Assembly (NCBI GenBank): GCA_045635585.1
Contig: JAZTWA010000020.1
Location: forward strand, 2,426-66,425
Direction of reading: 5' to 3'
From: Candidatus Enterousia sp.
GTDB taxonomy: Bacteria > Pseudomonadota > Alphaproteobacteria > Rs-D84
DNA length: 64,000 nt
Shown here: one piece after another, positions 6,657-51,281 of the stretch
Layout: each line of letters begins with the position of its first letter
How positions within the stretch are numbered: the first letter of the stretch is position 1
Program-made: the position numbers and the translations under genes
Notes under the pieces: model-generated
What the model was told of the DNA's origin: nothing
The model's input: only the letters and a program-made list of their open reading frames with translations
The model's database searches: none

Positions 6657-6688
6657 GAAAAAAACACCCCGATGCGGGGTGTTTTTTT
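6657..6688. terminator. Bidirectional intrinsic terminator between the convergent helicase and giant gene
   Basis: aaaaaaACACCCCGatgCGGGGTGTtttttttt: a perfect 9-bp stem flanked by an A-run and a T-run. Confidence 0.8.
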
Positions 6689-9600: not shown

Positions 9601-12600
9601 TTCAACATTACATGAAATTGGTGTATAATTTTCTATTTTACCACCATTGGGTATCAAATCGATTGGTTTATTGCCTTCTAAAACCCATACTGCTTCGAAT
9701 TCGATATTAGATGCTTGGTTCCAAACAATTGTTTGTCCGGCTTTGAAATTTTGACTAATGCCTTTCCAACCATCAAACACATAGCCAGCTTTTGTACAAT
9801 CTTGATTGTTTGCAAGTGTAAATTCTTCGTCATATGTTGCCGTATCGGATGCTGGTGCAGTACCTGTTGCACCCGTACCACAAGAATATGTAACAATATA
9901 TTCATTTGGGGTCCATTGGGCATACAAATCTATGACAGTGGCATCTGTTGATGTTAAATTTTTAACATTTGCGTTATTTGCATACGTTTCGCCTTGGCCA
10001 TCAATAGATGTGTTCCAACTATTGAATGAATAACCCGTTTTTTCGAATGTATTTGTATTCAACACTTGTTCTGTGTCATATGTAAATGACTGAGATGCCG
10101 TTTCATTACCAACAGTGTTCGAATAATACTTGATTGTATATGAAATTGGCTTCCATTGGGCATAAAGCATATATTTTTGCTCTGCTTCTGTTGTCCAATT
10201 ATCGACAACCGCTTCATCACTATAGTCGATTCCGCTGCCATCGCTTTCTGTGTTCCACCCTGTAAATCTGTAGCCAACCAATGTATACGCATTTTTTGGC
10301 AAATTCGACTTTTGATTATAATAATATTTATTTGGGTTCATTTGTTCGCCAGATACATTCGCAGTCGCGTTTTCAGGTTTGTTTTTGTTAAACGATACCG
10401 TCCAAACATTAGGTGTACAAGCGGCATTTACTGTTCCAGAGTTAATTGCTTCATATCCCAGTTTTGGTGTCACATCATACACAAGTCTTGACCAAGTATT
10501 GCCCTTAAAGTTTTGTGCTTGCGGAACCGCAGTTTCACAATTTTCTTTTTCAAACACCGTTGAATCAAACCAACAATCTGTATTTGCGCTACGTGGCAAT
10601 TCAGAACGATAGTTTCCGCTGCCCAAATAATGTGCCCCGGGTAACGTGCTACAATTTGTCTGGGTCAAATCCCCATCAGCAGAGAAATATCCGTTATCAA
10701 CTGGTATACATTCACTTGTATTTGTATTTCTATAATACCCTGCATTACAAGTCTTGACCGTTACAACACAATCCGTATCGTAAACAGCACTATCGCCTTT
10801 ACCACTGGTGTAATTACATGACTTGGTTGCTGTTCCATTTTCAATCAATGCAGGTATATCCGACAGATAACATTGGGTGATAGATGTCGATTGTTGCCCT
10901 TTTGTGTAACCAGAACGAGGACATTCGTTTTTAACACCGGCATCACACCACGCATTATATGGACATTCAATTATTTTTGTATGTGTAGAATTTGTGTAAT
11001 GACCCGTTGGTACTTCTTTACAATCCGTTGCGTTTGTTTCGTCTTGATATGTTGCGCCGCCACAGAAAGTACGTCCGTGTTCTTGTCCGTCGTATTCATA
11101 TTTTATGGATTCAGCAGGACATTTATAACCCTTTGGACAATCCGTACATGTTACAGAATCTTTTGGCAGATATTGTCTTGCAGGACATATTATCATTTTT
11201 TGTTTCCAATTAACTGTAAATGTTTGATCAGATAAATAGTCCCATACAATAGATTCACCAGAATCAAAAATGTTACCAATTTCATCAGTCCACCCGTCGG
11301 CTTCATATCCTTGTCTTTGACAAGTACTGATTGTATCAGCAAGTTCAAACGTACTGTTATACGAAATGCGTGTGGTAACAATTGGTGGTGTACCTGTTAC
11401 ATCGTTGGTATTGCCACAGGAATAAGTAATTTCATATTTATTTGGCACCCATTTTGCATATAAAGTTACATCTTCTAAATATGAGTTCGTACGCAAATTA
11501 TCGGTCAAAATCATACCCGTTTCGTTAATCATTTCAACCAATGTTCCACCAACCCCAGTCCAATATCCATCGAATTGGTAGCCATCACGACTTGGGACGT
11601 CAACATTAGTATATTCGCCACCCAATGTATGCCAGTTACCACTTGCGTCACTGACTTGGATTTCTGTTTCATATATAATTTGCAACGCACCTTCATTCAA
11701 AGTGCCATCACCATTATCCAATTTGATAGAATATATTTTTGGTGTCCACTGGGCTTCAAACGTTAATCCAGTGGTACATGTTCCCTGTTCTACTTTGTCA
11801 ACAATTCCGCCGGCACTGTTCAACCAACCTTTAAATTCGTATCCTGCTTTGACGATATCAGGTAACATAAACGTTGGTGTTATAACATTACAAGATTTTA
11901 CATAGTCAGCGGATATTATATTTCCACCTTTTGTATCATATGTAATTGTTTGTGCATTACCCGCAATCCAAGCAGCATACAAAGTAATATTATCTGTCTG
12001 TGCATATTTCCGCATAGACACACCGGTATTACTATAATATTGAACCTGATTTTCATCAAACCACCCGTTGAACTTGTATCCCGACCATGTTGGTACAGAT
12101 TCTAATTTTGGCATATCGTTATCGTATTTTACAGTAACATTTGCAGGATTTTGACCATCCGCACCATTTAAATCAAATGATATTGTATATTCAATCGGTA
12201 AACATGCAGATAATGTTACCTGTTTGCCGCCTTGTTGTGTTCCATCAGCACTATATCCTGTGTCACATACACATGACGCAGATGCCGCTTTATCCAATGT
12301 TGTAGAATGACTTGGACATGCTGTACACGAAGTTGTTTGCCCCCCTAAACTAAATGAGTCTTTTGGGCAACTAGAACAAGATGCATTTGTAGTATAATTA
12401 CCAATTACAATGTGTCCAGATTTTGCCAAAACTTCGTAAACAAAGGACTCCCAACCCGCTTGGGTATATGCAATCGGACTTACTGTGACACTGTTACACC
12501 CAGACAATTCAATTGAATCTTTTAATGTATATCTACAGTTAATTGCCGCGTTGCGTGGTGACACAGAAGAATATTCGCCACCCAAAATTGATGGTGAAGG

Positions 12601-15600
12601 TGTCAAATCTGCGCATTTATTTGCCGTTGACACATCACCATATGTAACGTAATGTTCTTCTTTATATTCGTCTTCGGCCACAGATACACATTGGGCTTTT
12701 GCAGTCTTGACATATGTACCACCCGCGCATAGGGCCACACATCCATTTTCAAAACTTGTTGCGTTACCATTTCTATAACCTTCTGGACATTGAACGCGTT
12801 CAATTGAATCCGCCGCAGACCAATAGCCCGTACCAACGGTTATACATGATTGAACATCCGCGTCCGCTTGATAATACGCAGCGTCACAATGTGTTACTTT
12901 TTGATTCACACAACCAGATGTATATTCTGCGCTATTACCGTCACCACTGGAATAATAACATTCTTGGGTTCCGCCACCATTTTTTGTTGTCCAAGTTGTT
13001 TGTTTGCGACATTGTGTTTTTTGTGTTGCACCTTCTATGCCGGTTGTACCGCCATTTGGACACGTATATGCGACACCATCGATACAGTATTTTCCCATTG
13101 GGCAAATTTCACATGTTTGATTATCTTTTTTATACTGATTTGCCTCACATGATGAACACTTTGTTTTGCCTTTTTCCATCGAAACTTCGTTTTGACCACT
13201 GCATTCAAATATACCCTGGGCCGCACCTGTGTATGTGTATGTTGTTTGGTTTGGACAATAAAATCCTGCTTCACACGTCGTGCATGTTTCAGAATTTTTT
13301 GGCAAATAATTTCCTGCACGACAGTTGAATGATTTTGGATTCCAACGTGCAGTTAACATTTTAGATTCTGTACATGTACCGCCGTATATATATGTGTATG
13401 CCATGCCGGATGCATCATACCAACCAACAAAGTTGTATCCAACACGAGTTGGGGTCGGTAATTCAATGTCTTCTGTTGTTTCTTGTGTGCAGAAAAATTG
13501 ATTTTCCGATAACGTTACATCTTCGCCAGGATTTAACTGTATAACAAATTGTCCGTCCTTGCCCCACAAAGCTGTAAATGTAACATTGATTGTATGATTC
13601 CATTCAAATGTTTGTATATCATCTGGCTTATATAATTTTACACCATCTGACCAACCCAAGAAATCATATCCATCATGCTTGCATGTGTTTTCTGGCAACG
13701 TAAATGTCTGGCCATATGTAATATTTTGTGTGGCAGGCACAACACTTGATGTATCGGCATCTGCGCCACAATTAAACGTTGCAGAATATGTTACCATACT
13801 GCATTCTTCAGTGGTTGTGGCTGTATTTCCATCAACCGTTCCACCCACAGTATAACCAATTGTACATTCACATGTAGAATCAGTGTTTCCTTTGGTTGTT
13901 GAACTGTTTGATGGACATGCAGAACATGTATTATCTGATAAATAATATCCCGCTGCACATGTTTTTAATGTACATGAATTTACGACCGCAGTTTTGCCTT
14001 CATCATACCACTGTGGGTTAATCCATTCATAAACAGATTCTGCATCAGGACATGCAAGGCATTGGGCATCGCCATTATTTGCGGTGTATGTGCCATTTGA
14101 ACACAATTGACATGTTGCACCTGCAACACTATAAGAACCCGCAGGACATGCAGCACACACGTTTTCTTGGTTTGGAACATATGTTGATGCGCCAAGTGAT
14201 GTTCCGGCCGCACAATTGTGTGCTTTATAGTAATAGAACGGTATTACATATTTTGAACCTTGTGTCACAGCTGTATCTTCGACCATGGTTTGATTTACAA
14301 CAATTGATTGGAATTGAATCAATTCAGTTGCATTGGAATCAGAAATATTCAATCCCAAAACGGCATTATTTAATGTTTGGTTCGGATCTAAAATAATTGT
14401 GATTGCACTTATAATTCTATTGTCGTTGGAAGGGTGGTCTAACTCCCATGCCACAGTACTATCATTTGTTACTTCTGCGGACGACCAAGAAATATACTTC
14501 CCAGTCTCTTGACCTTGAATTTCATACACACGCCCATTTGGGGCTAATAGAGTTACTTCAACACCCGCAATCTTGATTGGTGTATTGGACGATGTGGTTA
14601 AAACCAAATATTTATTATTTTTATAATCAAAAGTTTCTTTGGTTATATATTGACCAGCAGGTCTGTTGTAAACACATGCTGTTTCCAGTGTTCCATGAAT
14701 CAGAGTCGTACCTTCAAAGGAAACATTGGCGTTTTCACCACCATTAGGTAATGCAATCTTTGGGCACATATATAATTTTGACGTCTGACCATATTTTACA
14801 TATTCGTCCTGTGTCCAATATGTCTGATCTGTTTGATTAATCTGCATAATATCTTCTTTTTCACCGAATGGAACCAATATTTCGTACCCTGGGGAAACAC
14901 TCACTGCACAATCAGTGATGTTGACTGCATTTGTTGCCGAACGATAGAAATCTGGGCATTTTTCGCGACAGCCTTCGATATTATAATTGGTTTCACCAAT
15001 CCCTGGACAATACCACCCCTGTGGGCAATCTTGATGTTGTTGACCATCAAAATATTTTCCAGATTCACATGCCACAGGTGCACCAATATATTTTGCCGTT
15101 AATGTCAAATTTGCAGCTGTTTTGTAAATCAACGTTTGGTTTGCATCCGCATATTTTTCATTTTCGTTAATATACCAACCCATAAATTCATAATTTTCAT
15201 TTTGACATGTATTGGCCGCGGTTGTAAATTCGGAATTATATGTAACGGTCTGGGTTTCAATTGTTCCAGTGCCTTCACCACACGAATAAGACACAGTATA
15301 TGTTGCCGGTTCGCAAGATGCGGTTAGTTCCGTTTCATTTTTGTTCGATGTAATGAAGAATGATGTACTTCCATTGTTTATATATCCAGGATTGCAGATA
15401 AACTTGCACTGGAATTGATTTGCACCTAAATCTGTCGGTCTGGAGATACGATTTGTGTATACATTTTCGCCAGACACACATTGTGCAGCCGTCCAAACGA
15501 CATACAGTGTTACATTATCACCATTTGGCGATAAATCCTTGCCATCTGTACCCGCATCATAGCATGCACCCGTACCATCAGCATTTGTGCACCATTTTGT

Positions 15601-20374: not shown

Positions 20375-23300
20375 TTACATCCAGTCATCAACAACCGAAT
20401 ATTCTTTGTTGTTATATTTTACCCTAAGTGTTTCTTCTTCGATGAACAGATGATTTGCCAATGTCGATTCCGCGGCGCCGGCCCCAATCTGTACCACCAA
20501 ATATGGAGCAACAGCTTCAATCGTTGCAGATGGTGTACTCTGTGGCGATGTACGAACAACGCCTTGTAACTGCTGGCTTGCAGGACTTGGGTTGTCTGTA
20601 AAGCCCCAGCGGAATATTGTACCAACAACACTTGAACTTGTAGTATCAAATGTCAATGTATACTTTTTACCTACTTCTACTGGATAAACCACAGAATAAC
20701 TATCACTTGATTCGACCCATGCGTTACTTGCGTTAATCCATGCAGAAATACGTTCTGGATCTGTCATAAATGCCTTACGGTTTGTTTCTGACATGTTACC
20801 ATATAACGTCAATCCACCAACATTTGCATGGAACGCAGGTGCCGTTCGTTTGCCACTGCGCAGGAAGATTGTTGAGCCACCCGCGTGCAGTTTACGTCCG
20901 CAATCGTCGGCTTCGTTCGCCCCATAACCATAACCAATTGTAGTTAAACCGGTTGTACATGCGTGACGTTTGGAAGTTTCTGTTTGGGCAACGTCGCCGC
21001 CAGTGCCCCAGAAACCCGCACCAACGTTTATACATTTTCCACCCGCGGTTTCAACATACGAACCCGCCGGACATGATACTACACACGATTTGATGCCTGC
21101 ATGCTGACTATATTCGTTGCCGCTGTTACCGTATCCATCTTCGGTATCACATGCCGTACATGCGGATGCGCCCGCATCAGAATATGTATTCGATGCACAT
21201 ACAGTGATGCCACCTGTTTTATCGGCATATATCTTGGTACCACCCGCACAATATCCACCAGCAACACAGTCTGTTAAGCCCGCACCAGCCGTTTCAACAT
21301 ATTTGCCCGCAGTTGTTGATAAATAACATGCGTTTACAGATGTTGCAGATGTGCCACCATCAGAATTTGGATATGGGTTTACACATGAAGTTTGGCCCAA
21401 CGTGGCGTTGTATGTACCAGAACTGCACAATGGCATCGCATCCAAACCAGAACAGTAATGATCCTTTGGACATGCCGCAGCATCACTGTACAACATCGCG
21501 CGTTTTGGATTATTAACGATATCATCACACCATGTTGCACTTAAACGTTCTGTGAAGTAGTACCCCGGATTTAATGTATCATAGAACAAATCACCACCGA
21601 TATCATACTTGCCGTTGCTGCTGTTATATGTTGTGCCATCAACCAAGAACTGACCATATTTATTGGTAAATTCGTATGTTACCGCACATTCTGTTATCTT
21701 GGTTAATCCGGTTAAATCGGACTTGTTTTCAACAAAAACAAGTGTTGGATTGTGATACTTTTCAGGATACGTTACACGTTTATGTGATTCTGCATCTGGA
21801 CATTTTTCATTACCACCAACATTATCCCAATACAGAGTGCCACCTGGGCAATAATATGTACCAGAACATGTTGTTTGAACTTCGTCTGCTTTAGTCTGGA
21901 TATAATGTCCAGCAACAACTTTTGCATAACAATCCGTATCTTGGGTTGCCCCAGATGCACTGTGTGAATACAAACCACCACCTAATTTGCTGCATGCGGT
22001 TTGTACAGTTGAACCCGCCGGACAGTAATTACCCGCAACACATGTTGAACATGTCGATGTTTGTGGATAATTTAATGTATGTTTGCCCAAATATGTACCG
22101 CCCGCACATTCTGTTGTGGACGTATCAGTCGATTTACCAAGGTATGCGCCGCTGATTTCATCAGTATAACAATCTTCGGCTTCGTCTGATTTTGCTGGAC
22201 TGTTTTTATACAATCCGCCACCCAATGTTGAACATGCCGTACGCCCACCCACAGAACCATAGTGAACATCAATACCACCAGTACAATAACCGTTTGCAGC
22301 ACAATCTGATTCTGTTTGATCTCCCACGGTCTGGATATACTTTTTGGACGTTGTTGTGCCATAACACGCCGTATCCGTTTTTGCGCCAGCAAGTGATTTT
22401 GTATAGAACGAACCCAATGTTGAACAAGATGTTTCAGCAGATGAACCCGCCACACAATAATTACCCGCCGTACAGGTATCGCATGTTGATGTATCACCGT
22501 AATGCACGCTGTGATTACCTTTGAATGTTCCAGCCGCACATTGTGTTGAGGTCGCATCATTTGGCTTGGCAATGTATGCGCCACTGATTGTGTTGGTATA
22601 GCATGCAGATGCACCACCGGTGTTGCCCACCACAGAGTTTGGATAGCCGCTTGGACATGCAGTACATGTTGTGCCGGCATCATAGAAGCCCGCTTGTGCA
22701 CTTACAGCTTTTACGGTCTTGGTACATGATTCTGCATTGGTTTCACAGCCAGATTTTACAGTACCGTCGCCTGTACCCGCTGAATTTGCATATGCTGTAT
22801 AATCACAGGCAGCAACAGAACATGCATTCCAGTCCGTTACAGCTGAACAATTTGTTGGTATCGCACCATCTAGCTGACTGCCGGTCCATGGGCGCTGTTT
22901 CGTGTTACTGAAACATGCGGTTACACCACCAGTGTTGCCCACCACAGAGTTTGGATAGCCGCTTGGACATGCGTCACAGGTTTGACCATTTACATAGTTG
23001 TTTGCCTTGGCCGTTAATGCCGTTGTTACGGTTGGGTCGTTCCAGCTGGTACTGTCTTTGGCGGTTTTGGTTAATTTACCCGCACTGCAGTTGCCCAATG
23101 GTGTACCACCGTACGATACATCGGTCATCGCCGTACATTGTGTTACATCGGTAAGCCCATCTGGCCCGTCGTAATACCAACCATCCCCGGCCGCTGGACA
23201 TGATGAACATGTGGATGTGTCACCCAATACAACTGTTGTTGTGCCTTGGTATGTTCCGGAATCACAATCGATGGATTCGCCGTTCAGAACAACCATGGTT

Positions 23301-26300
23301 GGTGTAGAGACACCCACTTTTGTATAATTTTCTTCATAAAATACAGGTATCCAGTCACCATACATACCACCCAATACGTATATTCCAAGGCTATCAAATA
23401 TGGGGGTAAGTGTATTAAACATTATTGAACCAATTTCATAACTGCCACCCAATTCAAATACGAATTCACCGTCCGCAGATGCAGTTGGTTTTTGCCCCGC
23501 AGGCATACTAAAATTACCATCGGTGGCACCAGCACAGTTAGCGCCAACAGAACAATTTTTGCCGGCCAATATATTTGTCCCCGTACCATCGTGTGATTCA
23601 AATGCCTGGATTTCATTCAGCATAAAATTCAACGTAGTGCCGCTTGGAATGCCAACGATTTTGATTTTGGACGCCGGGATTGTGTTTTGTTCGATGTATT
23701 GGCCCGATATAGTGGTTGTACAATCACGTGCGGCATCGTGCGCAGATGCGGTTGTGCCATTTGATGTATAGCCTGTCATACAATAGTCCACAGCTGATAT
23801 TGAACCATAATTGACATCTTGTGCCGCTGATGTGAACCAATTTCCCGCCGGTGATGTGCATTGTTCGCCCGCAGATACAACGCGCTGACCCGCAGAACAT
23901 GTGGTTTTACATGATGATTCGCCCGCGTGTGCCGTTGCAGTATCACCAGAATTACCGTATTCTGATGGGCATGCTGTGCATGATGTCGCGCCAGTCACAG
24001 AATACTGATTGTCACCACAAACAGAACATGAAGATGTCGAACCATAGTTCACAGTATGGTCGCCCTTGAATGTGCCGGACGCACAGCTGGTTGTGCTGCT
24101 TGCATTTGCAGTGGCAATGTATGCACCACTGATTGTGTTGGTATAGCATGCAGATGCACCACCGGTGTTGTCCGCCGCAGAGTTTGGATAAAAACCACCC
24201 GCCAAGCCAGAACACGCTGAACATCGTGTACCATTTACATAGTTATTCGATTTGGCCTTTAATGCCGTTGATACGGTTGGGTCCTTCCAGTGGGTGCTGT
24301 CCAATGCGGTTGCGGACAATGCGCCCGCGCTGCAGCTGGACAATGGTGTGCCACTGGTCGATGTTGTGGTTACCATTTTACATTCCGCCCAAGACCCCAG
24401 ACCAGTTGCAGTGTCATACTTCCAACCGTCGACAGGTGCAGGACATGAATCACATGTTTCCAATGTGTTGGCAAAATATTGCCGATCGCTTTCTTTGTAT
24501 GTGCCCGCACCGCAGGCTTTTGGGGCGGTTACATACAGTGGGAAACGGAATGTCGCACCCAACACCGGCATATTATCGCCCGCTTCCCCGGTTTGTTCGC
24601 CCGTTCTGATTAAGCTACGCGCAGTTTCAGCAGCATCTTCAACCATTACACGTATACGAGCCTCTCTGGAATCTTTTTCTGTTACCGGAATGATTTCGAT
24701 ATGTGACAGTGCAGGATCTTTAATATCCGTATTATTACGGATCGCACCATACAAACCACCGGAATCAATGTCGATTCTTATTCTATCACCAGATTCAAGC
24801 CAGACCGCATCTATAACATCACCATCAAGCAATGACATTGTCGGAACCACATGGCCATCGGCATCCAGAATAGTCATAAATCTGTCAACCATTTCTGCGG
24901 GTAACTGCGTGGTGCTGATTTCAAAGCTGCCCGCGTCCAATGCATCCGCCAATTCCAAGAAATAGAAGCGTATTTCGGCAATTTCTATAAAGGAGGAAGT
25001 ATCAGCAAATACTTCGATACGCCCTGGTATAGGATATCTTACGGGGCGCGATTGATATATGCCGCCGGATGGTGTAATTGGTGCAATACACGCGTGTTGC
25101 GATGAATCATGCGGCATGTTGGGGGTTGGTGCAAAATTACCAATCAAGCCATTAGTCATCGTTTTATCACCTGCAACATTATTAATTGTTGAACAGAAGT
25201 TCATTGGTGATACAGACTGATAATATACAGAATGTTCGTCCGTCCATGCAGATGCAACCAAATTGTTGCCGATTGTGTCCAAATTAACCGGTGCGGCCAT
25301 TGGTGTTAAAACCGCGCCACCCGCATGAACGTTGACATAACAATCGCGTATAGAATCTGAGCCAAGTTCACTGAACGGGTAATTGCCTTCTGTTTCTTTG
25401 TCACAAGAAAATCCCCCATTAGCAGAACCATAATTGACCTTTTCTGATGGACAGTATTCACCCGTTGGACATTCTGTTTCGTCCTTGTCTTCTTTGTCGG
25501 CAATATATTTGCCCGGTGTTGTGTTCAAATAACATGCAGATACACCACCGGTGTTGCCCGCCGCAGAGTTTGAATACGGCGCAGGACATACATCACATGA
25601 CGATGTGCCAGATACATAATTACCCGCCGTTGCCGTTACAGATGCGATTGTTTTTGTACAACTTGACGCGGTACATGTTTCATCGGTTGCACCGTTATAG
25701 TCGCGATATGTACATGACCCAGGTGTACATGCATTATATGTTGCATTTGAACAGCGGTCAGGTATGTCAGGATTCAACTGGGCACCGGTTTTGGTTTTTG
25801 ATACATAGCAATATTTTTCATCGGATGTACCAACATCAGAATTTGGATATGCCGTCGGACATGATGAACATGTTAATGTTGATGTCAATGCCAAAGCTGT
25901 ATTGCCCGCACGATATGTGTTTGCGGCACATGAACGTGGAATATCAGACACAACAACCGTATTGATAATTATCTGATCTATATAGCTGTCGCTGGTTTCG
26001 ATATCTGTTGGTTGCATCACAGGTATCCAATTGTTTGGTTCGTCCGCCGTTGCAACAAATATTTGAACATTTTTATATGTTTCACGATATCCATAGTCAA
26101 CAGAGAATACGAATGAACCAATTTCTTGGTTTGCCCCCATGTCAAACAGGATGCTGCCCTGTTGTCCCTGTTCAAAACTTATATAAGTGTCACTGACGTC
26201 GAAATAGCCATCTGTGGCACCATAACCGACTTCATATGCTTCTTCCCCATTTATATCAGGAATACCGAATGCCAGCAACCCATCCAATAAATTGGTGCCG

Positions 26301-29300
26301 GTTGCATTATTTGATGTAAATGCCTGAATTTCATTCAGATAGATAGATGGATCCATGTCACTTTCACTGCCACTTCCGTATAAATAACCATCGGATGCAA
26401 AGCGTACATAACGGGCGGTTATTGTGTTTTTGTTCACCGCCTGGCCCGCAGGAACTGTTGTTTTGCAATCGGTTGCCGCGTCGTGATCCGCCGCAGTGGT
26501 GCCAGATGCCGTATAACCATCCATACAATAGTTAACCGCCGATACATTGCCGTAACTTACTTCTTGGGATTCGCCATAGAACCAATTTCCCGCCGGTGAT
26601 GAACATGTGGCACCCGGTGTTGTGACACGTTGACCCGCAGAACATGTGGTTTTACATGAATAAGCGTATGCATGGTAAAGGGAGGTGTTACCAGAATTGA
26701 CATATCCAGATGGACATGTTTCACATGCAGCCGCCCCACTATCAGAATATTGATTGATGCCACAAACAATACATGATTCCTGTGTTTCAACCTGACCATA
26801 GCCTACCAGATGTTCAGCTTTGTACGATCCGGCCACACAAGGCGCTGTGTTGGTAGAATATTTGGTTCTAAGATATTTCCCCCCAGGAACCAAGATTTTA
26901 CATTGGGATGCGGCGGTTTTACGTTCGGACAAATCATCCACATAGCCTGTAGGGCAATTTTCTTGCACGCCGCCCGAACAATATGTTGCGCCAGTACATT
27001 TTGTTTGGCTTGTACATGCCTCGTTGTCACTGTTACAGCCTGTTACATAGTATCCGGAATTTGTATTTTTACATGCTGTTTGACCAGTCGCATCTTGATA
27101 TTTGCCCGCCGGACATGGGGTTTCCTGCGAATTACCTTCGCCGGCCGCATAATGCCCCGCAGATGCAGGATTACATGTTGGGTGTGGACCACCGGCATAA
27201 TATCTATATTCAGGTAAATAGGTACCAGGTTGACAAAACATAAGTTCATATGCAACCAATGGAAATGAAAATCCAACACTGGCAAATTCGCGAGTACCCC
27301 AATAATCCGTTTCTGCCGAGTCGTAGGCCATATCAGAATAATTATATTCACCATTGGTTCCATTCTCAATAGCATTGAACGGAACATATGAGGCAACTAT
27401 GCTGGAGTTTAAACTATCATTCACATAGATTGACATAATAGCTTGAGTATGTGATATTGCCATATATTGGGATGGACGTAAAACAATACGTGTGTATTCA
27501 AGCCCCGATGGCAAATCCAGATCTATAAAATAATTAAAATCATCCGTACTCAGAGAAGTGGTTACATCGCCATCAAATAAATCCCAGTAGTATTCCGCAA
27601 ATCCACTGATGCTATACATTGTATCAGGATCCAGCTTTGTATCACCAACATAGACTTCGATTTCAGAAATTTCGGCCCATTCATAAAATTCGATACCAAT
27701 TGCATAAATCGAAGCGTTTTCAATGATATTATCGGTGTAATGTTCAACACCCGACATATCCAAGTAACAAGTGTTTAACCCGGCATGGAGACCCATATTA
27801 TTACCATCGAATGAATATATCTGCGTGTCGTAATCGCTAATGGTTGGACAAACCGTGTAATTGGATATCTGGCCCAACTTTACGGTATGCGCGTCTAAAT
27901 AATATGGCATATTTGGCACCGCTGTCAATGGAATACATGTGTCTCCTGGAATGAATACCCCGTATCCAGGATCACAGTCAATCTGACAATCCATGTCAGA
28001 TGTGGCGCCATCTGGTGCATAATAGCCGGTGGGACACTGAACACCAACATATTTCCAATGGGCGTATAATGTGAATGTCGTCGATGTTGGGTAAAGCGTC
28101 AAAAGCGCAGTATCAGATGTTAATCTACCCACAGCGGTAATCACTTGCGTTCCACCAGTTTCCGCAGTGTAATATCCCATAAATTCATGTAAATTACGGC
28201 TAGGTAATGAAAAATTATAGGGTTTGGCTGACGCCGTAATCAAATTACCCGCCGCGCTAGATGTAGAACTGATTGAAACATTGGTGTTATACTTACGATA
28301 CAATGTTGTTGTACCACCGGTTCCATCGTTTTTATCCAATGTAATGGTGGCCTGTATCGGATTCCATTTGGCATACAGGGTTATATTAGATGTGCTTACC
28401 GTGTACAAATTATTTGTTGTTACACCATCGGCCTTGACATACTGGGTACCAGAACCGTTTTGTCCCGTATAATATCCACCGAATGTGTATCCTGTTTTTG
28501 TTGGTTTGGTGATAGTATCACCACTGTTGCCGCCAATACATGTTGTCAAGGCAGATGTTGTATAATAATAACATGTGCCCTTGGTATTATATTGATAATA
28601 GTATTCTTTTGTTCCCGCAGTTGTTGCGCCTTGGTTATTCAAGGTTACTTTGATTGTATTTGGTGTCCATTGTGCATATAATTTAACGGATGTTGGGGTG
28701 CCGTTACCACACGTACCGTTCCATGATGAAATCGACTGGCTCTTGCTGTATGATGTACCCTTGCCATTCGCCTGGGTGTTCCAGCCCGACAAAGTATATC
28801 CGGCGCGGGACAATCCAGATCCAGAATTCAATGTTAATGCCGTACCATATGTCAGGGTTTGAGATGATGGCGTTGTTCCAGTACCACCATTCAAATCATA
28901 TGAAATTGTTGTTTTGCATACTTCCCACTTGGCTTTCAAACTATAATCACCCATACTTTGTGTCAGCGAGAAATTCGATGTTGTAAACCCGTTTGCATCA
29001 ATAATCAGGGGCGCCGTTCCAGTTACAACATTTAATTCAAACCCCGCAAAGCGCGAACCACTTTTTGTGGCAATCGCAGACCCATACGTATCAATCCCGG
29101 CACCACCAACATTTGACCAATCTTCCCAGGACCCACCAGCATCCCACGAAACCTGAAGTTTTTCGCCGTAAATGACGCGCATTCTGAAATCCGCATCTGC
29201 CAAGGTACCACCATTTGAATTTAACGTGATATTAACCGTATAACCGGTACAAGAACCACCATTTTCAACAGGTTTTACATACTGAACGCCGCCTTCGCCA

Positions 29301-30388
29301 CCAGTGTTGGAAGTAAAACCGCTGTTACAAACACAATTGATGCCTTGCAATGTAGAGTTTTTCGGACAGGTATAACAATCGTATTTCTTTTCTCCACTAT
29401 GATAAACATATGATTTGCCGGCTGGACATGCAGAGCACACCATGCCTTTATCCGCAGATGTAGCGCCGTATTCAACAGTATGTTCTTCTATTTTCGGTTT
29501 ATCAGATGGACATATTTCAGGGTCACCGCCCGCGCTGGCGATATAATAACCAGATTCAACCACTGCCTTACATTGACTACTTGATGTCCAGCCTGTGCCA
29601 GTTGCATCCCGATAATACGACGGACATGTCATTCGCTGGCCACCAGAACAGTAATAATAACCAGAACACTGGGTTTGTCCCGTACAGCCCGTACCAGATG
29701 TTCCGCAACCAGTCGCATAATATCCAGATGTTACAGGCGTACACGATGTCGCAGTACTGCCGTTCGTGCCCTGATACTGATAATTGGTACATGACACACA
29801 TTTTTGTGATGCACCAGTTCCCGACAGATATTTACCCTTGCCCGCCTTCAATGTTGTTGTAACAGCGGAAGTAGAGCCATACCATGATGCGTTTTTTACT
29901 GATACATATTGTTCATAACCATTAACATTTGGATTATTTGGATTCCATTGAGCGCTCTCAATCATAGTTGCATAAGGGAGGATAGGTTGCGTTAAAGTAC
30001 CGCTATAACAGCCGGCGGCACTGGCCGACAGGGTTTGGGTACATTGGGTTATGTTCGTCATACCGGTTTGGGTACCCATGGTCCAACCCGATGTTACGGT
30101 TGGACATTTCAGAGATTCACTGGTCGCTTTCATTCTCTTATTTGGACAGATATATCCCGCAGGACATGCCGTACGCGCGGAATTCGGGTTGGTTGACGCA
30201 TTATATCCGGGACAGATATATCCCACCTCGCACATCTTACAAGTAGTGCCCGATAGGTAATAACCCGCGTTACACTGCGTGTACACCTTGGTCGCACTGG
30301 TCGAGCAGGTATAACCCGCCGCAAATGCGTTATTTAATGTGAATAATGAAACCAATAAAATCGCGAAAATACGCAAAAATTTGAACAT
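20375..30388 (-). CDS. Giant (3337-aa) secreted Cys-rich mosaic protein with four EIEVY/EIQAF beta-sandwich modules
   Basis: I prefer the start at ATG 30388 (MFKFLRIFAILLVSLFTLNNAFA signal peptide, GGGAAAG SD) over the upstream Met at 30451. CxxC/GYYC modules run throughout. Listeria-Bacteroides repeats lie at aa ~400-800. Cys-poor modules lie at nt ~27242-27739, 25952-26425, 24527-25054 and 23267-23689. The Cys-free C-terminal ~180 aa map to 20375-20920. Confidence 0.85.
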   Translation of the reverse strand: MFKFLRIFAILLVSLFTLNNAFAAGYTCSTSATKVYTQCNAGYYLSGTTCKMCEVGYICPGYNASTNPNSARTACPAGYICPNKRMKATSESLKCPTVTSGWTMGTQTGMTNITQCTQTLSASAAGCYSGTLTQPILPYATMIESAQWNPNNPNVNGYEQYVSVKNASWYGSTSAVTTTLKAGKGKYLSGTGASQKCVSCTNYQYQGTNGSTATSCTPVTSGYYATGCGTSGTGCTGQTQCSGYYYCSGGQRMTCPSYYRDATGTGWTSSSQCKAVVESGYYIASAGGDPEICPSDKPKIEEHTVEYGATSADKGMVCSACPAGKSYVYHSGEKKYDCYTCPKNSTLQGINCVCNSGFTSNTGGEGGVQYVKPVENGGSCTGYTVNITLNSNGGTLADADFRMRVIYGEKLQVSWDAGGSWEDWSNVGGAGIDTYGSAIATKSGSRFAGFELNVVTGTAPLIIDANGFTTSNFSLTQSMGDYSLKAKWEVCKTTISYDLNGGTGTTPSSQTLTYGTALTLNSGSGLSRAGYTLSGWNTQANGKGTSYSKSQSISSWNGTCGNGTPTSVKLYAQWTPNTIKVTLNNQGATTAGTKEYYYQYNTKGTCYYYTTSALTTCIGGNSGDTITKPTKTGYTFGGYYTGQNGSGTQYVKADGVTTNNLYTVSTSNITLYAKWNPIQATITLDKNDGTGGTTTLYRKYNTNVSISSTSSAAGNLITASAKPYNFSLPSRNLHEFMGYYTAETGGTQVITAVGRLTSDTALLTLYPTSTTFTLYAHWKYVGVQCPTGYYAPDGATSDMDCQIDCDPGYGVFIPGDTCIPLTAVPNMPYYLDAHTVKLGQISNYTVCPTISDYDTQIYSFDGNNMGLHAGLNTCYLDMSGVEHYTDNIIENASIYAIGIEFYEWAEISEIEVYVGDTKLDPDTMYSISGFAEYYWDLFDGDVTTSLSTDDFNYFIDLDLPSGLEYTRIVLRPSQYMAISHTQAIMSIYVNDSLNSSIVASYVPFNAIENGTNGEYNYSDMAYDSAETDYWGTREFASVGFSFPLVAYELMFCQPGTYLPEYRYYAGGPHPTCNPASAGHYAAGEGNSQETPCPAGKYQDATGQTACKNTNSGYYVTGCNSDNEACTSQTKCTGATYCSGGVQENCPTGYVDDLSERKTAASQCKILVPGGKYLRTKYSTNTAPCVAGSYKAEHLVGYGQVETQESCIVCGINQYSDSGAAACETCPSGYVNSGNTSLYHAYAYSCKTTCSAGQRVTTPGATCSSPAGNWFYGESQEVSYGNVSAVNYCMDGYTASGTTAADHDAATDCKTTVPAGQAVNKNTITARYVRFASDGYLYGSGSESDMDPSIYLNEIQAFTSNNATGTNLLDGLLAFGIPDINGEEAYEVGYGATDGYFDVSDTYISFEQGQQGSILFDMGANQEIGSFVFSVDYGYRETYKNVQIFVATADEPNNWIPVMQPTDIETSDSYIDQIIINTVVVSDIPRSCAANTYRAGNTALALTSTLTCSSCPTAYPNSDVGTSDEKYCYVSKTKTGAQLNPDIPDRCSNATYNACTPGSCTYRDYNGATDETCTASSCTKTIASVTATAGNYVSGTSSCDVCPAPYSNSAAGNTGGVSACYLNTTPGKYIADKEDKDETECPTGEYCPSEKVNYGSANGGFSCDKETEGNYPFSELGSDSIRDCYVNVHAGGAVLTPMAAPVNLDTIGNNLVASAWTDEHSVYYQSVSPMNFCSTINNVAGDKTMTNGLIGNFAPTPNMPHDSSQHACIAPITPSGGIYQSRPVRYPIPGRIEVFADTSSFIEIAEIRFYFLELADALDAGSFEISTTQLPAEMVDRFMTILDADGHVVPTMSLLDGDVIDAVWLESGDRIRIDIDSGGLYGAIRNNTDIKDPALSHIEIIPVTEKDSREARIRVMVEDAAETARSLIRTGEQTGEAGDNMPVLGATFRFPLYVTAPKACGAGTYKESDRQYFANTLETCDSCPAPVDGWKYDTATGLGSWAECKMVTTTSTSGTPLSSCSAGALSATALDSTHWKDPTVSTALKAKSNNYVNGTRCSACSGLAGGFYPNSAADNTGGASACYTNTISGAYIATANASSTTSCASGTFKGDHTVNYGSTSSCSVCGDNQYSVTGATSCTACPSEYGNSGDTATAHAGESSCKTTCSAGQRVVSAGEQCTSPAGNWFTSAAQDVNYGSISAVDYCMTGYTSNGTTASAHDAARDCTTTISGQYIEQNTIPASKIKIVGIPSGTTLNFMLNEIQAFESHDGTGTNILAGKNCSVGANCAGATDGNFSMPAGQKPTASADGEFVFELGGSYEIGSIMFNTLTPIFDSLGIYVLGGMYGDWIPVFYEENYTKVGVSTPTMVVLNGESIDCDSGTYQGTTTVVLGDTSTCSSCPAAGDGWYYDGPDGLTDVTQCTAMTDVSYGGTPLGNCSAGKLTKTAKDSTSWNDPTVTTALTAKANNYVNGQTCDACPSGYPNSVVGNTGGVTACFSNTKQRPWTGSQLDGAIPTNCSAVTDWNACSVAACDYTAYANSAGTGDGTVKSGCETNAESCTKTVKAVSAQAGFYDAGTTCTACPSGYPNSVVGNTGGASACYTNTISGAYIAKPNDATSTQCAAGTFKGNHSVHYGDTSTCDTCTAGNYCVAGSSAETSCSTLGSFYTKSLAGAKTDTACYGTTTSKKYIQTVGDQTESDCAANGYCTGGIDVHYGSVGGRTACSTLGGGLYKNSPAKSDEAEDCYTDEISGAYLGKSTDTSTTECAGGTYLGKHTLNYPQTSTCSTCVAGNYCPAGSTVQTACSKLGGGLYSHSASGATQDTDCYAKVVAGHYIQTKADEVQTTCSGTYYCPGGTLYWDNVGGNEKCPDAESHKRVTYPEKYHNPTLVFVENKSDLTGLTKITECAVTYEFTNKYGQFLVDGTTYNSSNGKYDIGGDLFYDTLNPGYYFTERLSATWCDDIVNNPKRAMLYSDAAACPKDHYCSGLDAMPLCSSGTYNATLGQTSCVNPYPNSDGGTSATSVNACYLSTTAGKYVETAGAGLTDCVAGGYCAGGTKIYADKTGGITVCASNTYSDAGASACTACDTEDGYGNSGNEYSQHAGIKSCVVSCPAGSYVETAGGKCINVGAGFWGTGGDVAQTETSKRHACTTGLTTIGYGYGANEADDCGRKLHAGGSTIFLRSGKRTAPAFHANVGGLTLYGNMSETNRKAFMTDPERISAWINASNAWVESSDSYSVVYPVEVGKKYTLTFDTTSSSVVGTIFRWGFTDNPSPASQQLQGVVRTSPQSTPSATIEAVAPYLVVQIGAGAAESTLANHLFIEEETLRVKYNNKEYSVVDDWM

Positions 30389-30500: not shown

Positions 30501-30524
30501 GCAGAATTGTGGGATTTTTTTCTT

Positions 30525-30763
30525 TTGTCATTGCGATGGGAGTTTTAACGACCGACGCAATCCAGATAGTGTGTATGCTGATTACTGGATTGCCACGCTT
30601 CGCTCGCAATGACAAAGGTGTTACTGGATTGCTTCGCTGCGCTCGCAATGACAAGGAGTGTAAAGTGTTTTTCCTTTGTCATTGCGATGGGAGTGTAACG
30701 ACCGACGCAATCCAGATGGTGTGGATGATTACTGGATTGCTTCGCTGCGCTCGCAATGACAAG
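30525..30763. repeat. Cluster of palindromic intergenic repeat units (same family as 1712-1874)
   Basis: Two copies of ttgtcattgcgatgggag.gtaacgaccgacgcaatccagat, each followed by ~20 nt and then one or two inverse units actggattgc..cgct.cgctcgcaatgacaa. Confidence 0.85.
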
Positions 30764-30821
30764 GGGAGATAATTTTTATTATGGATTTATTTGTGTCGCA
30801 TATGGTATGCTGGGGCTTGAT

Positions 30822-47690: not shown

Positions 47691-49490
47691 ATGGTAAAAG
47701 TAAAAGAAAAAAAGACTGCACCAACAAAAAAAGGCGCAAAACCTGAAACGCCACGCGCAATTCGTGGCATGAACAAACATGAATCTGATGCAAATGACGA
47801 TAAAGTATATTTTATGGCACTGGGCGGATTGGAACACATCGGCCAGAATATGTATGTGTATAAATACAAAGGCAAATACTTAATCGTTGATTGTGGAATG
47901 GGATTCTTGGAAGAAGAAATTGGTGCTGGTGATGTTCAGTACTGTGATACAACATGGTTGGAAAAACGTAAAAAAGACGTGGTTGGCTTTGTTATCACAC
48001 ATGGACACGAAGATCATATTGGGGCACTGAAATTTATATGGCCAAAATTCAGAAAACCAATTTACTGCACACGATTCCCCGCAGAAATATTGCGCAGAAC
48101 ATTTGATGGAATCGAAATGGATTACGACAAGAAAAAAGACATTGTTGAATTCGATCATAACGGCGCAACATTGGATTTGAATCCATTTACAGTCGAAACA
48201 TTTCACGTAACACACAGTGTACCCGAAGCGCAAATGTTAATAATTAAAACAGGCGCTGGGAAAATCTTGCATACGGGCGACTGGACATTTAACGATGACA
48301 ATCCAATCGAAGCAACGACTGATTTTGCACGTTTGACCGAAATCGGTTCTGATCCAAAGTTATTGGCATGTATGTGCGATTCCACAAATTCGTCGCGTCA
48401 GGCAAAACAGGTTACAGAAACACAAGTACGTGATACTTTGACCGAAATTATGAAAAATGCCCCAGGACGTGTTTTGGTAACTGGATATTCACGCAGTTTG
48501 GCACGTATCAAAATGTTTTCACAGGCTGCGCGTGCCGCCGGTCGTGTTGCCGCAATCAAAGAACGCAGTAACCCAAATCCGGTACCATATGTTGGATTGC
48601 CCGAATTCCGCGAAATGGGAATTAAATTTGGATATTTAAATAAAGATGACGTTTATCTGCACAGCGAAATCAAAGATTTACCGGCAGAAAAACAGGCAAT
48701 CTTTTTAACTGGTTCACAGGGTGAAAAGTTTGCAATGCTGACACGTCTGTGCCATGGTCAGGTTAAAGAATTAAAACTGCAACCAACCGACACAATTGTG
48801 TTCAGTGCAATTATTATCCCAGGACGCGAACAAGATGTATCATATCTATATAACAAATTGGCGCGCATGGGCGTTAAAACACATACAATCTTTGATACAG
48901 ACAACCTGCACGCCAGTGGGCATGCCGGCCGTCAAGAATTGGAAAGATTTTATGACATGGTTCACCCCCAAGTTTCTGTGCCAATGCATGGTGATTACAT
49001 TAATGAAATGTTAAACGGCAAAATGGCGATGGAACGCGGTGGCGCAAAGCATATGATGGTTGTTCATAATGGCGAAATGGTCGCATTATCTGACGGAAAC
49101 GAACCATACGTTGCCGAAACAATCGAAACCAGTTACGTCGTTATGGAAGGTGAAACAGAACGCAGCGCAAATGACCAAGTATATAAAAACCGCAAAAAGA
49201 TTGCATCAAATGGCGCGGTGTTTGTAACACTGCCGGTTGACAAGCGCGGATTCTTAAAGGGCGTTCCCGAAGTATCCAGTGCCGGTATATTTGAAACAGA
49301 CGAAACAGGATTTATGAAACGTCAGATTCAAATTGAAATTACAAACGCAATTAACGGATTAACAAAAACCGAACGCAAAGACAAAAACAATCTGATACGT
49401 GCGGTCCAAATTGCATCAAACAAAGTTGTTCGTGCCGCATTGGGCGCCGACAAAAAGCCACAATATAGTGTGCACTTTGTTCAAAAATAA
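47691..49490 (+). CDS. rnj: Ribonuclease J (metallo-beta-lactamase / beta-CASP)
   Basis: ALGGLEHIGQNMY...IVDCG...ITHGHEDHIGAL motifs, ~600 aa with a basic N-terminal extension. Confidence 0.9.
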   Translation: MVKVKEKKTAPTKKGAKPETPRAIRGMNKHESDANDDKVYFMALGGLEHIGQNMYVYKYKGKYLIVDCGMGFLEEEIGAGDVQYCDTTWLEKRKKDVVGFVITHGHEDHIGALKFIWPKFRKPIYCTRFPAEILRRTFDGIEMDYDKKKDIVEFDHNGATLDLNPFTVETFHVTHSVPEAQMLIIKTGAGKILHTGDWTFNDDNPIEATTDFARLTEIGSDPKLLACMCDSTNSSRQAKQVTETQVRDTLTEIMKNAPGRVLVTGYSRSLARIKMFSQAARAAGRVAAIKERSNPNPVPYVGLPEFREMGIKFGYLNKDDVYLHSEIKDLPAEKQAIFLTGSQGEKFAMLTRLCHGQVKELKLQPTDTIVFSAIIIPGREQDVSYLYNKLARMGVKTHTIFDTDNLHASGHAGRQELERFYDMVHPQVSVPMHGDYINEMLNGKMAMERGGAKHMMVVHNGEMVALSDGNEPYVAETIETSYVVMEGETERSANDQVYKNRKKIASNGAVFVTLPVDKRGFLKGVPEVSSAGIFETDETGFMKRQIQIEITNAINGLTKTERKDKNNLIRAVQIASNKVVRAALGADKKPQYSVHFVQK

Positions 49491-49493
49491 AAA

Positions 49494-49523
49494 TTGACGT
49501 GGGTATGACAATTTTGGTATCAT
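49494..49523 (+). promoter_or_regulatory. Candidate sigma70 promoter for the phase-variable gene
   Basis: TTGACG (49494-49499), 18 nt, TATCAT (49518-49523) with TG two nt upstream (extended -10 type). It overlaps the hairpin GGGTATGA...TCATACCC. Confidence 0.4.
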
Positions 49524-49551
49524 ACCCACACAGTTTTATAAAGAGAATATT

Positions 49552-50151
49552 ATGAATGTTGCCCATACATACATACATACATACATACATACATACATAC
49601 ATCGCTTGATTCTTTTAATTGTGCTGTGTTGCATGGGTACAAATAATGCATTTGCCGCAAACAAATATTTGGTATATAAATCCGACAAAATATCGTGCGA
49701 CAAGGTCGAACATGATAGTGGCAATTATGTTTATGCAGATTTTGAATTTTCATGTACAATACAATATGGGGAAAATTCTCTAAAATTTCCAATCAAGGGT
49801 TTTGCTATTGTTACCGAAGCAGATACAGATAATGATACCTGCGTTCCAGGCAGTTTTCAAAAGTCGCCGAAAAATCGATACAAAGATGCTTCGACAAACC
49901 CGGAAAATATTGGTATACAGTATGTATTGAAAAATTGTTGTTATTGCAAAATTTATTATCCCTTTGCAACAGAAAGTTTTTATACCCACATTTACCAAAA
50001 CCACCCAAAGTATGACTCTTGGACTGGAGACAATAATTATAACACCAATTGTATGGCATTCTGTAGAGACAGTATATTAGATAACGATGGTAATCCAGGT
50101 ATTCTAACCAAAATTATTGAGGCAGGAAATGAAATTATTAATAAAATTTGA
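49552..50151 (+). CDS. Secreted Cys-containing protein of unknown function; tetranucleotide tract in codons 5-17
   Basis: MNVA-(HTYI)3-H-RLILLIVLCCMGTNNAFA|ANKY: a signal peptide directly follows the repeat-encoded residues. The mature part shares CxCKIxxP-(28)-NCxxxC with the 50429..50860 ORF. Confidence 0.6.
   Translation: MNVAHTYIHTYIHTYIHRLILLIVLCCMGTNNAFAANKYLVYKSDKISCDKVEHDSGNYVYADFEFSCTIQYGENSLKFPIKGFAIVTEADTDNDTCVPGSFQKSPKNRYKDASTNPENIGIQYVLKNCCYCKIYYPFATESFYTHIYQNHPKYDSWTGDNNYNTNCMAFCRDSILDNDGNPGILTKIIEAGNEIINKI
49564..49602. repeat. (CATA)n tetranucleotide microsatellite, 9.75 units
   Basis: Direct count: a perfect 39-nt catacatacat... tract starting 12 nt after the ATG at 49552. 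Confidence 0.97.
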
Positions 50152-50434
50152 CATACTGTTTCTATGTTTTAGCTTTGTATCGTCTGAAATACATGCCGCC
50201 AAAAACATAACATCCCCCACAGCAAGCGACACAACAATACGCGAAGAAATGATGGTTATCGCAGATACCAAAAGCGAAGATTTGGTTCTTATATTCGAGG
50301 ATGTACCTTCATGTGTCGATTATCCCAACAAGCCTGTTTGTTATTATTTTTTGGACGGAACATCTGAAAAGCCGCAAGAATACGTTGACCAGGATGGTAA
50401 CATATTTGAAATATCAGGGACATGTGCCTTATAA
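50129..50434 (+). CDS. Small secreted protein, unknown function
   Basis: ATG at 50129 preceded by GAGG 6 nt upstream; MKLLIKFDILFLCFSFVSSEIHA signal peptide; overlaps the end of the preceding gene. Confidence 0.45.
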   Translation: MKLLIKFDILFLCFSFVSSEIHAAKNITSPTASDTTIREEMMVIADTKSEDLVLIFEDVPSCVDYPNKPVCYYFLDGTSEKPQEYVDQDGNIFEISGTCAL

Positions 50435-50860
50435 ATTCAACAAATCTTTCAGTTTATCGGCACAAACCTGTGCGCATGTTTTATCACAATTCAACGCAGG
50501 AACATGGGCGGCCGTTTCATTAGGATCTGTCACTTCAGAAGAAAACTCTTTACCAAGTGCCCATTCTTTAATTATCGGATGTATAATTTTGCAAAAACAA
50601 ACCTTATTTCTGTACACACGTGAAGACAAAGCAATAAAACCACTATCCCCCAATTCCACCCCACATGCCGCCAGACCACGTATCGTTATACCATTGCATG
50701 CAACAGACCAATCCAGCGAAAAATCCGGTGCCGTTGCAGGTTTTCCATCACACGCCGTTTTTAACCCATCAACATCTACACGCATCGTAACGGTGGCATA
50801 AGATACATTTGAATACAATAACGATAACAAGGTTAACAAAAACACTGATTTTTTTGGCAT
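50429..50860 (-). CDS. Small secreted Cys-containing protein, paralogue of 49552..50151
   Basis: MPKKSVFLLTLLSLLYSNVSYA signal peptide. CFCKIIHPI-(28)-NCDKTC has the same spacing as CYCKIYYPF-(28)-NCMAFC in the neighbouring gene. Confidence 0.55.
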   Translation of the reverse strand: MPKKSVFLLTLLSLLYSNVSYATVTMRVDVDGLKTACDGKPATAPDFSLDWSVACNGITIRGLAACGVELGDSGFIALSSRVYRNKVCFCKIIHPIIKEWALGKEFSSEVTDPNETAAHVPALNCDKTCAQVCADKLKDLLNL

Positions 50861-50928
50861 ATTATTTCCACAATTGTTGACGTTTTGATTTTATCGCATA
50901 TCGTATTCAAATGTCAATAGCGTTATTG

Positions 50929-51253
50929 CTGGACTGCTTCGTTTCGCTCGCAATGACAAGGGTGGGGATAATGTGTTTTTTCTTTGTCATTGCGATGGGA
51001 GTGTAACGACCGACGCAATCCAGAAGATGTGGCTGATTACTGGATTGCCGCGCTACGCTCGCAATGACAAGGGGGCTGGATTGCCGCGCTGCGCAATGGC
51101 AAGGGTGGGGATAATGTGTTTTTTCTTTGTCATTGCGATGGGAGTGTAACGACCGACGCAATCCAGATGATGTGGCTGATTACTGGATTGCTTCGCTCCA
51201 CTCGCAATGACAAAGGAATGACTGGATTGCTTCGCTCCGCTCGCAATGACAAA
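50929..51253. repeat. Largest cluster of the palindromic intergenic repeat family
   Basis: Two copies of gtgttttttctttgtcattgcgatgggagtgtaacgaccgacgcaatccaga and at least five inverse units (ctggattgc..cgct.cgctcgcaatgacaa). Confidence 0.9.
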
Positions 51254-51281
51254 TACGGACGGATAAATCATGATAAAAAAT

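Follow-up and report, generated by a model that had tools for sequence, protein, structure and literature searches.

A CATA repeat in the signal-peptide region of a strain-variable secreted-protein gene of Candidatus Enterousia: a candidate phase-variable locus

An orphan secreted-protein gene next to rnj

The window, a stretch of 64,000 nt from the uncultured gut alphaproteobacterium Candidatus Enterousia (genome ~0.9 Mb), carries directly downstream of the RNase J gene an orphan gene for a cysteine-rich protein, SP199, whose 5′ end contains a long CATA repeat. An origin from an alphaproteobacterial, symbiont-like genome had been proposed from the DNA letters in a preliminary description, and the RNase J bears this out: it is 84-94% identical to the RNase J of 80 species representatives, and its relatives are labelled Candidatus Enterousia, uncultured Alphaproteobacteria or Rickettsiales and come from ruminant, horse, chicken and human guts. 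Enterousia belongs to the order Rs-D84, with genomes of 0.75-1.0 Mb that encode neither a TCA cycle nor respiratory chains (PMC12306168). The features of the locus are as follows.

47691-49490: rnj (RNase J), directly upstream of SP199
49494-49523 (+): putative sigma-70-like promoter hexamers, TTGACG-18-TATCAT, with TG before the -10
49497-49531 (+): hairpin right after the rnj stop, followed by TTTTAT, dG -18.5 kcal/mol
49540-49545 (+): Shine-Dalgarno-like AAAGAG, 6 nt before ATG1 and 10 nt before ATG2
49552-49558 (+): overlapping start codons ATGAATG, with ATG1 at 49552-49554 (in frame at present) and ATG2 at 49556-49558
49552-49656 (+): signal-peptide coding region, read from the translation
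49552-50151 (+): SP199, orphan cysteine-rich secreted-protein gene, 199 aa, secretion predicted
49558-50917: strain-variable island with SP199, SP101 and SP143, absent in strain L007 and replaced in strain L001
50129-50434 (+): SP101, 101 aa, with its own signal peptide, overlapping the SP199 3′ end by 23 nt
50429-50860 (-): SP143, 143 aa, signal peptide, convergent
50918-51260: GC-rich repeat array of 36-37-nt and 143-nt elements (CTGGATTGC...CGCAATGACAAGGG), right border of the island

The SP199 N-terminus consists of an n-region, MNVAH(TYIH)3R, an h-region, LILLIVLCCMG, and a c-region, TNNAFA/ANKY (the slash standing for the cleavage site), with an AxA motif before A36. By inspection, R18, the LILLIVLCCMG core and TNNAFA/A supply the positive charge in the n-region, the hydrophobic stretch of 10-15 residues and the AxA motif expected for Sec export and signal peptidase I, and we read the N-terminus as a Sec-type signal peptide with a long n-region. 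A lipoprotein reading was rejected by inspection because there is no proper lipobox, the two cysteines having L or C at position -1. Five cysteines do not vary, not even in the L001 allele, which is only 40% identical.

Among 5.8 billion proteins, three homologs of SP199 only were found, and a profile search of 1.84 billion representatives returned SP199's own family and one fragment only. Comparison with Pfam, NCBIfam, PHROGs and PDB sequences gave no match, and the AlphaFold2 model built from the 4-sequence alignment (mean pLDDT 53.8) was too poor for a fold search. Neither a paralog of SP199 nor a second copy of its leader is present in the window or in 80 species loci. The window's own SP199 is missing from the collection of 5.8 billion proteins, in which the adjacent SP101, sourced from NCBI, is present; possibly, the source annotation does not call the SP199 ORF.

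The promoter-like hexamers reported in the preliminary description are indeed found upstream of the gene, where they match at 10 of 12 positions and are invariant in all alleles; promoter-like sites occur in the SP199 region at chance frequency (9 found versus 7.6 expected), and an SP199 promoter at this site is plausible. The hexamers overlap the hairpin that follows rnj (z = -3.3; 0 of 200 shuffles fold as well), which is likely the rnj terminator and which a motif scan lists as terminator-like on the minus strand. The alternative to an own promoter would be read-through from rnj. An AAAGAG- or AAAGGA-type motif, such as the one in front of SP199, lies upstream of most long ORFs in the window.

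The other two genes of the island, SP101 and SP143, are also small orphans with signal peptides. SP143 is preceded by a promoter-like site, TTGACA-18-TAAAAT (50917-50888), and SP101 has its own Shine-Dalgarno sequence, GAGG. Beyond the island and the GC-rich repeat array, the next gene is rpsD. Downstream of rnj, the gene order differs among Enterousia species, and SP199 occurs in close relatives only. The GC-rich 36-37-nt and 143-nt elements (CTGGATTGC...CGCTCGCAATGACAAGGG), which are both dispersed and in tandem and recur at 1769-1877 and 30516-30766, resemble the palindromic elements of Rickettsiales, and their copy number varies between strains.

The CATA tract and the two start codons

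At 49564-49602 (+) lies a perfect (CATA)9.75 tract of 39 nt, which starts at codon 5 of the 199-aa ORF, in frame, and fills codons 5-17. Tandem Repeats Finder (49564-49602, period 4, 9.8 copies, 100% matches, consensus CATA) and the translation agree on this point with the preliminary description. The sequence at 49552-49620 reads ATGAATGTTGCC(CATA)9CATCGCTTG, that is, ATGAATGTTGCC followed by nine CATA units plus CAT and then by CGCTTGATT. The tract encodes H(TYIH)3 and precedes RLILLIVLCCMGTNNAFA/A. It lies within the signal-peptide coding region and, more precisely, wholly within the n-region. Whatever its length, (CATA)n is read as (HTYI)n in all three frames and contains zero stop codons on either strand.

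A tract of this length is far beyond chance. In 200 first-order Markov simulations of the window, in which the longest period-4 run was scored, this run had a mean of 12.4 nt and a maximum of 17, and the longest period-4 run elsewhere in the window is 12 nt. Apart from the tract, the thresholds for simple repeats are exceeded in the window by an A9 run only. Likewise, in ~1 Mb of sequence from close strains and 80 Enterousia species, no tetranucleotide tract exceeds 13 nt apart from the 15-nt ortholog of the CATA tract in strain L004. Given that no other long simple repeat was found in the window or in this related DNA, nothing points to a set of switchable genes across the genome. As a strictly alternating pyrimidine-purine run of 39 nt, (CATA)n at 49564-49602 would in principle be prone to adopt Z-DNA under negative supercoiling.

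Because the unit is 4 nt long, its gain or loss puts the start codon out of frame with the remainder of SP199. The early stops described previously for both changes are recovered when the variants are translated from ATG1: one added unit (n+1) yields a product of 32 aa and one removed unit (n-1) yields a product of 17 aa, with TGA directly after the tract. However, a second start codon, ATG2, lies exactly one repeat-unit length downstream of ATG1, and at n+1 or n-2 the signal peptide and the entire protein can be read from it in frame, beginning MLPI(HTYI)nHRLILL.... Contrary to what had been assumed, the n+1 variant is thus not necessarily off; the truncation from ATG1 stands, but ATG2 restores the frame, so that a clean off state is left for n-1 only. 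In this third frame (n-1, n+2), there is no ATG, GTG or TTG upstream of the tract. Since ATG2 is less well spaced from the Shine-Dalgarno motif than ATG1, expression at n+1 would probably be weaker. Taken together, ATGAATG and the 4-nt unit suggest that three states are allowed, namely, on, probably weaker on, and off, with ATG2 presumed to serve as a start.

Alleles, loss and selection among strains

All SP199 homologs occupy one locus, directly downstream of rnj, and the following states of the tract were found there.

Window: (CATA)9.75, 39 nt; in frame, intact, 199 aa
L004: CATACATACATACAT, 15 nt; in frame, intact, 206 aa
L001, L002, L003 (three samples): CATAACATACAT, 12 nt; in frame, intact, 195 aa, 40% identical
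L091: CATAACATACAT, 12 nt; in frame at the tract, disrupted downstream
L005: CACATACAT, 9 nt; in frame, intact, 196 aa
L007: no tract; gene deleted after ATGAAT

Among the alleles, hardly any variation is seen in the signal-peptide codons or in the 110 nt that precede the tract, and ATGAATGTTGCC is invariant in all that bear the island. The comparison of strains, proposed in the preliminary description as a check on phase variation, gave a divided answer: the tract does differ in length (39, 15, 12 and 9 nt), but none of the alleles found is out of frame. Only the 39- and 15-nt alleles differ by whole units, exactly 6; the differences among the 15-, 12- and 9-nt alleles are codon-sized, not unit-sized. 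From the tract lengths at the orthologous site, the 39-nt tract is read as having grown, in this strain specifically, out of a short CATACAT proto-repeat. The other alleles, with short or interrupted tracts, should be stable. Slippage mostly proceeds one unit at a time. If this applied here, the 6-unit difference implies that the expansion passed through out-of-frame states; only steps of three units would have spared the lineage this passage.

All four lengths are multiples of 3 and keep ATG1 in frame, as they should if ribosomes start at ATG1 and translate the tract. This bears on the possibility that translation starts downstream of the tract, at one of the in-frame codons TTG 49606, GTG 49621 or ATG 49633, in which case the tract would belong to the 5′ untranslated region and its length would not affect the frame. 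Start codons are thus available, and in the truncated L091 allele the gene caller picked the internal MGTNN methionine, giving a product of 42 aa. Nevertheless, we give this option very little credence: there is no Shine-Dalgarno-like motif at these codons, whereas AAAGAG precedes ATG1 as in other genes of the window; a start at M28 would remove the hydrophobic core and hence, as had been pointed out before, the signal peptide; and four in-frame lengths would arise with a chance of only ~1/27 if the tract were untranslated.

The codon-sized differences, together with the confinement of the repeat to the n-region, could also be taken to mean that changes of three units (4 residues, TYIH) set the length of the n-region and thereby the efficiency of export in a graded manner rather than on or off. 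To our knowledge, there is no precedent for selection on n-region length, and the n-region of signal peptides generally tolerates changes in length; moreover, most slippage events involve one unit and shift the frame, so that frame effects would dominate. We therefore regard export tuning as highly improbable.

The 39-nt allele was observed once, on what is apparently a single NCBI contig of 87,856 nt, probably from a metagenome-assembled genome. Two exact-pattern scans of JGI metagenome contigs yielded no further tract alleles, SP101, SP143 and a 172-aa SP199 form (from the internal methionine), looked up as exact sequences, gave no copy on other contigs, and the homolog searches returned no other copy of the window's SP199 allele and, for SP101, the known contigs and the window's own contig only. 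Exact look-ups of the RNase J and S4 proteins led to L001-type contigs and the deletion strain L007 only. The single occurrence of the long allele and the lack of further exact copies leave some room for an artefact of assembly or sequencing, with a true tract that is short, as in the other alleles, or of another length. An artefact is nonetheless very unlikely: an ordinary short read is longer than the whole tract, whose periodicity is perfect and which keeps the frame; clean expansions of repeats are seldom produced by assemblers; and five independent assemblies carry the same motif at the same site.

The island itself is replaced or lost among strains that are otherwise nearly identical. 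The window RNase J is 100% identical to that of L001/L006 and of L007, with flanks that are 97-98.7% identical at the nucleotide level; that is, RNase J is unchanged in strains in which SP199 is 40% identical or absent. Between L001 and the window, there is no detectable nucleotide similarity from 49675 to ~50695. L007 lacks 49558-50917, with flanks 98.4-98.7% identical to the window, and the deletion has left the promoter-like site, the Shine-Dalgarno motif and two codons. In L091, an in-frame TAA follows codon 60 (as the 61st codon), after which the sequence continues into unrelated DNA.

Several further details of these loci were noted. The L007 junction (4866-4880) lies 6 nt into SP199 (ATGAAT/ATAG), with an AAT microhomology to window positions 50915-50917, and this strain, although devoid of the whole three-gene island, has RNase J and S4 proteins identical to those of the window. 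In L091, directly after the disrupted SP199, a DNA-methylase fragment without a counterpart in the window lies on the opposite strand (1062-1298, -); the junction may be a rearrangement or an assembly chimera. At the 3′ end of rnj, window 49332-49481 and L004 151-300 are 80-91% identical, flanked by stretches of 99-100% identity, a mosaic that suggests recombination tracts around the island. An origin of the island from a mobile element, prophage or plasmid was considered; searches of phage and plasmid collections with the island gave no nucleotide match.

Substitutions in the mature part of SP199 were counted by the Nei-Gojobori method for the closer alleles.

Window vs L004: 54 nonsynonymous, 2 synonymous; dN/dS 7.2, binomial p = 5e-4
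Window vs L005: 44 nonsynonymous, 4 synonymous; dN/dS 2.7
L004 vs L005: 39 nonsynonymous, 5 synonymous; dN/dS 2.0

In the same allele comparisons, rnj and rpsD show 0 nonsynonymous changes, as does the SP199 leader among the window, L004 and L005; the leader of the 40%-identical L001 allele differs by ~1.5 nonsynonymous changes, located at the tract border. All four alleles share residues 16-41 unchanged, whereas the mature part diverges, with changes clustered in patches between perfectly conserved blocks. These counts indicate strong diversifying selection on the mature part of SP199. A second site at which alleles differ in length, again in frame, is found towards the C-terminus (50060-50100 versus L004 and L005; alignment A4, columns 527-596), and the motif GATGACGATGGTAATCCAG (DDDGNP) is present once or twice per allele, with extra codons around it. 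We also considered SP199 as the target of a diversity-generating retroelement and rejected this reading because the window contains no template copy and the variable columns show no adenine bias (13% of columns with majority base A are variable, as are 16% with C, 19% with G and 10% with T).

Possible phase variation and known contingency loci

We consider it somewhat probable that the SP199 tract is a site of real, repeat-mediated phase variation, in which strand slippage switches translation, as in autA/autB or licA. In the proposed mechanism, slippage during replication would add or remove CATA units and thereby switch SP199 heritably, reversibly and at random. With 9.75 ± 3k units, ATG1 would be in frame and SP199 on, which corresponds to the present state; with one unit more, ATG2 would be in frame and expression probably weaker; and the loss of one unit would leave the signal peptide without an in-frame start codon ahead of it and SP199 off. 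Polarity of such switching on SP101 is possible, though SP101 has its own GAGG. This account presumes slippage at a useful rate, the use of ATG2 and a benefit from switching, all three of which we infer.

Several properties of the locus are those of contingency loci. The repeat is perfect, lies at the 5′ end of the gene, has a unit that is not a multiple of 3 and exceeds both chance and background, and a change by one unit truncates the product translated from ATG1. This product appears to be exported, judging by its signal peptide, evolves with a dN/dS of 2.0-7.2 and varies in presence and absence, with disrupted alleles as well. The setting thus matches, by analogy, that of the classical loci, in which a repeat between the start and the signal peptide controls an exported, fast-evolving and dispensable protein; the expression of such proteins is sometimes a liability.

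The closest parallel is with the meningococcal genes autA and autB, in which AAGC repeats follow immediately after the start codon, inside the signal sequence, in 5-32 copies in autA and 2-10 in autB (PMC5118866). There, as in SP199, a tetranucleotide tract right after the ATG and inside the signal peptide sets the frame by its repeat number, and allelic variants are exchanged horizontally; the 9.75 units of SP199 fall within the range of autB, in which repeat number varies between isolates with just 2-10 units (PMC5118866). Furthermore, autA and autB alleles locked on by a short tract are often disrupted further downstream (PMC5118866), and the disruption of the short-tract L091 allele and the deletion in L007 parallel this pattern. 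By contrast, switching of autA and autB has been shown experimentally and out-of-frame autB alleles are abundant (PMC5118866), whereas none was seen among the SP199 alleles found. The unit (AAGC versus CATA) and the product (an autotransporter versus an unrelated 199-aa orphan) differ too, as do the hosts, Neisseria or Haemophilus in one case and an uncultured alphaproteobacterium in the other.

For the use of alternative start codons, the relevant model is licA, for which Weiser et al. reportedly described three expression levels in 1989. In the lic1 locus of Haemophilus influenzae, the 5′ CAAT repeats of licA are preceded by several start codons just upstream, and tracts comprise 5-56 units, with means of 27 in H. 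influenzae and 15 in H. haemolyticus (PMC2992063). Both licA and SP199 thus have an intragenic 5′ tetranucleotide tract with more than one ATG upstream, such that repeat number selects, or in SP199 would select, the start, and in both the start of the downstream gene overlaps the end of the upstream one. However, licA encodes a cytoplasmic choline kinase in an operon for LPS decoration and usually has longer tracts, and the use of ATG2 is presumed in SP199.

The opa genes of Neisseria, a multigene family with recombination between copies, carry CTCTT pentamer repeats in the region encoding the hydrophobic core of the signal peptide. They resemble SP199 in that the signal-peptide region of a hypervariable surface protein contains a repeat with a unit length not divisible by 3, that the switch acts, or in SP199 would act, at translation and that hypervariable segments occur in the mature protein, and they differ in the position of the pentamer, in the core, and in being multigene, SP199 being a single locus with no paralog in the window. 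Our literature search found no report of a tetranucleotide contingency locus in the Enterousia lineage or in alphaproteobacterial symbionts with reduced genomes.

The serious competitor is a neutral microsatellite, that is, an in-frame expansion of the proto-repeat in a cleaved, insertion-tolerant n-region, with SP199 simply on and slippage at ~10 units too rare to matter. According to De Bolle et al., as cited in PMC2992063, mod constructs of H. influenzae with 5-11 tetranucleotide units switched rarely or not at all, and switching rates rose only from 17 units. Given that the 9.75 units of SP199 fall within this range of rare switching, its rate may be low; they also fall within the variable range of autB, which differs between isolates at these very numbers (PMC5118866). 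The in-frame state of every allele, the restriction of the long tract to one allele among those found and the lack of further long simple repeats, both in the window and across the ~1 Mb of related sequence, all fit a neutral origin as well. Conversely, a perfect 39-nt tract is hard to build and to keep without ongoing slippage, growth from 3.75 to 9.75 units in any but three-unit steps requires out-of-frame intermediates, and the positive selection on SP199 and its repeated loss create a setting that favours switching. On balance, neutrality is possible but not, in our view, probable. As to phase-variable expression, which the preliminary description had put forward, the layout, the length differences between strains, the diversifying selection and the loss alleles speak in its favour, and the in-frame state of every allele speaks against it.

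That an Enterousia strain has evolved a true three-state (strong, weak and off) contingency locus from (CATA)n, ATGAATG and the island-borne SP199 is a tentative proposal that we would not call likely. If true, it would imply an antagonistic partner that recognises SP199, be it host immunity, a phage or a microbial host, and it would extend tetranucleotide contingency loci from the classical mucosal pathogens to an uncultured commensal or symbiont of a group, Enterousia/Rs-D84, that commonly inhabits ruminant, horse, poultry and human guts. The repeat mechanism as such is textbook knowledge; it is the combination of the repeat with the extreme dN/dS, the replacement of alleles and the deletion, against a background of identical housekeeping genes, that would mark SP199 as a protein seen by an antagonist. 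SP199 is thus a candidate locus for partner interaction or an antigen and offers a concrete target in the search for a partner or predator, and the claim of phase variation is directly testable in existing metagenomic reads.

Elsewhere in the window, two giant ORFs on the minus strand, of 3942 aa (6688-18516) and 3337 aa (20375-30388), take up about one third of the DNA. The first contains at least 10 Listeria-Bacteroides repeat domains (Flg_new, E = 6e-94) and the second at least one, and both probably encode giant surface proteins.
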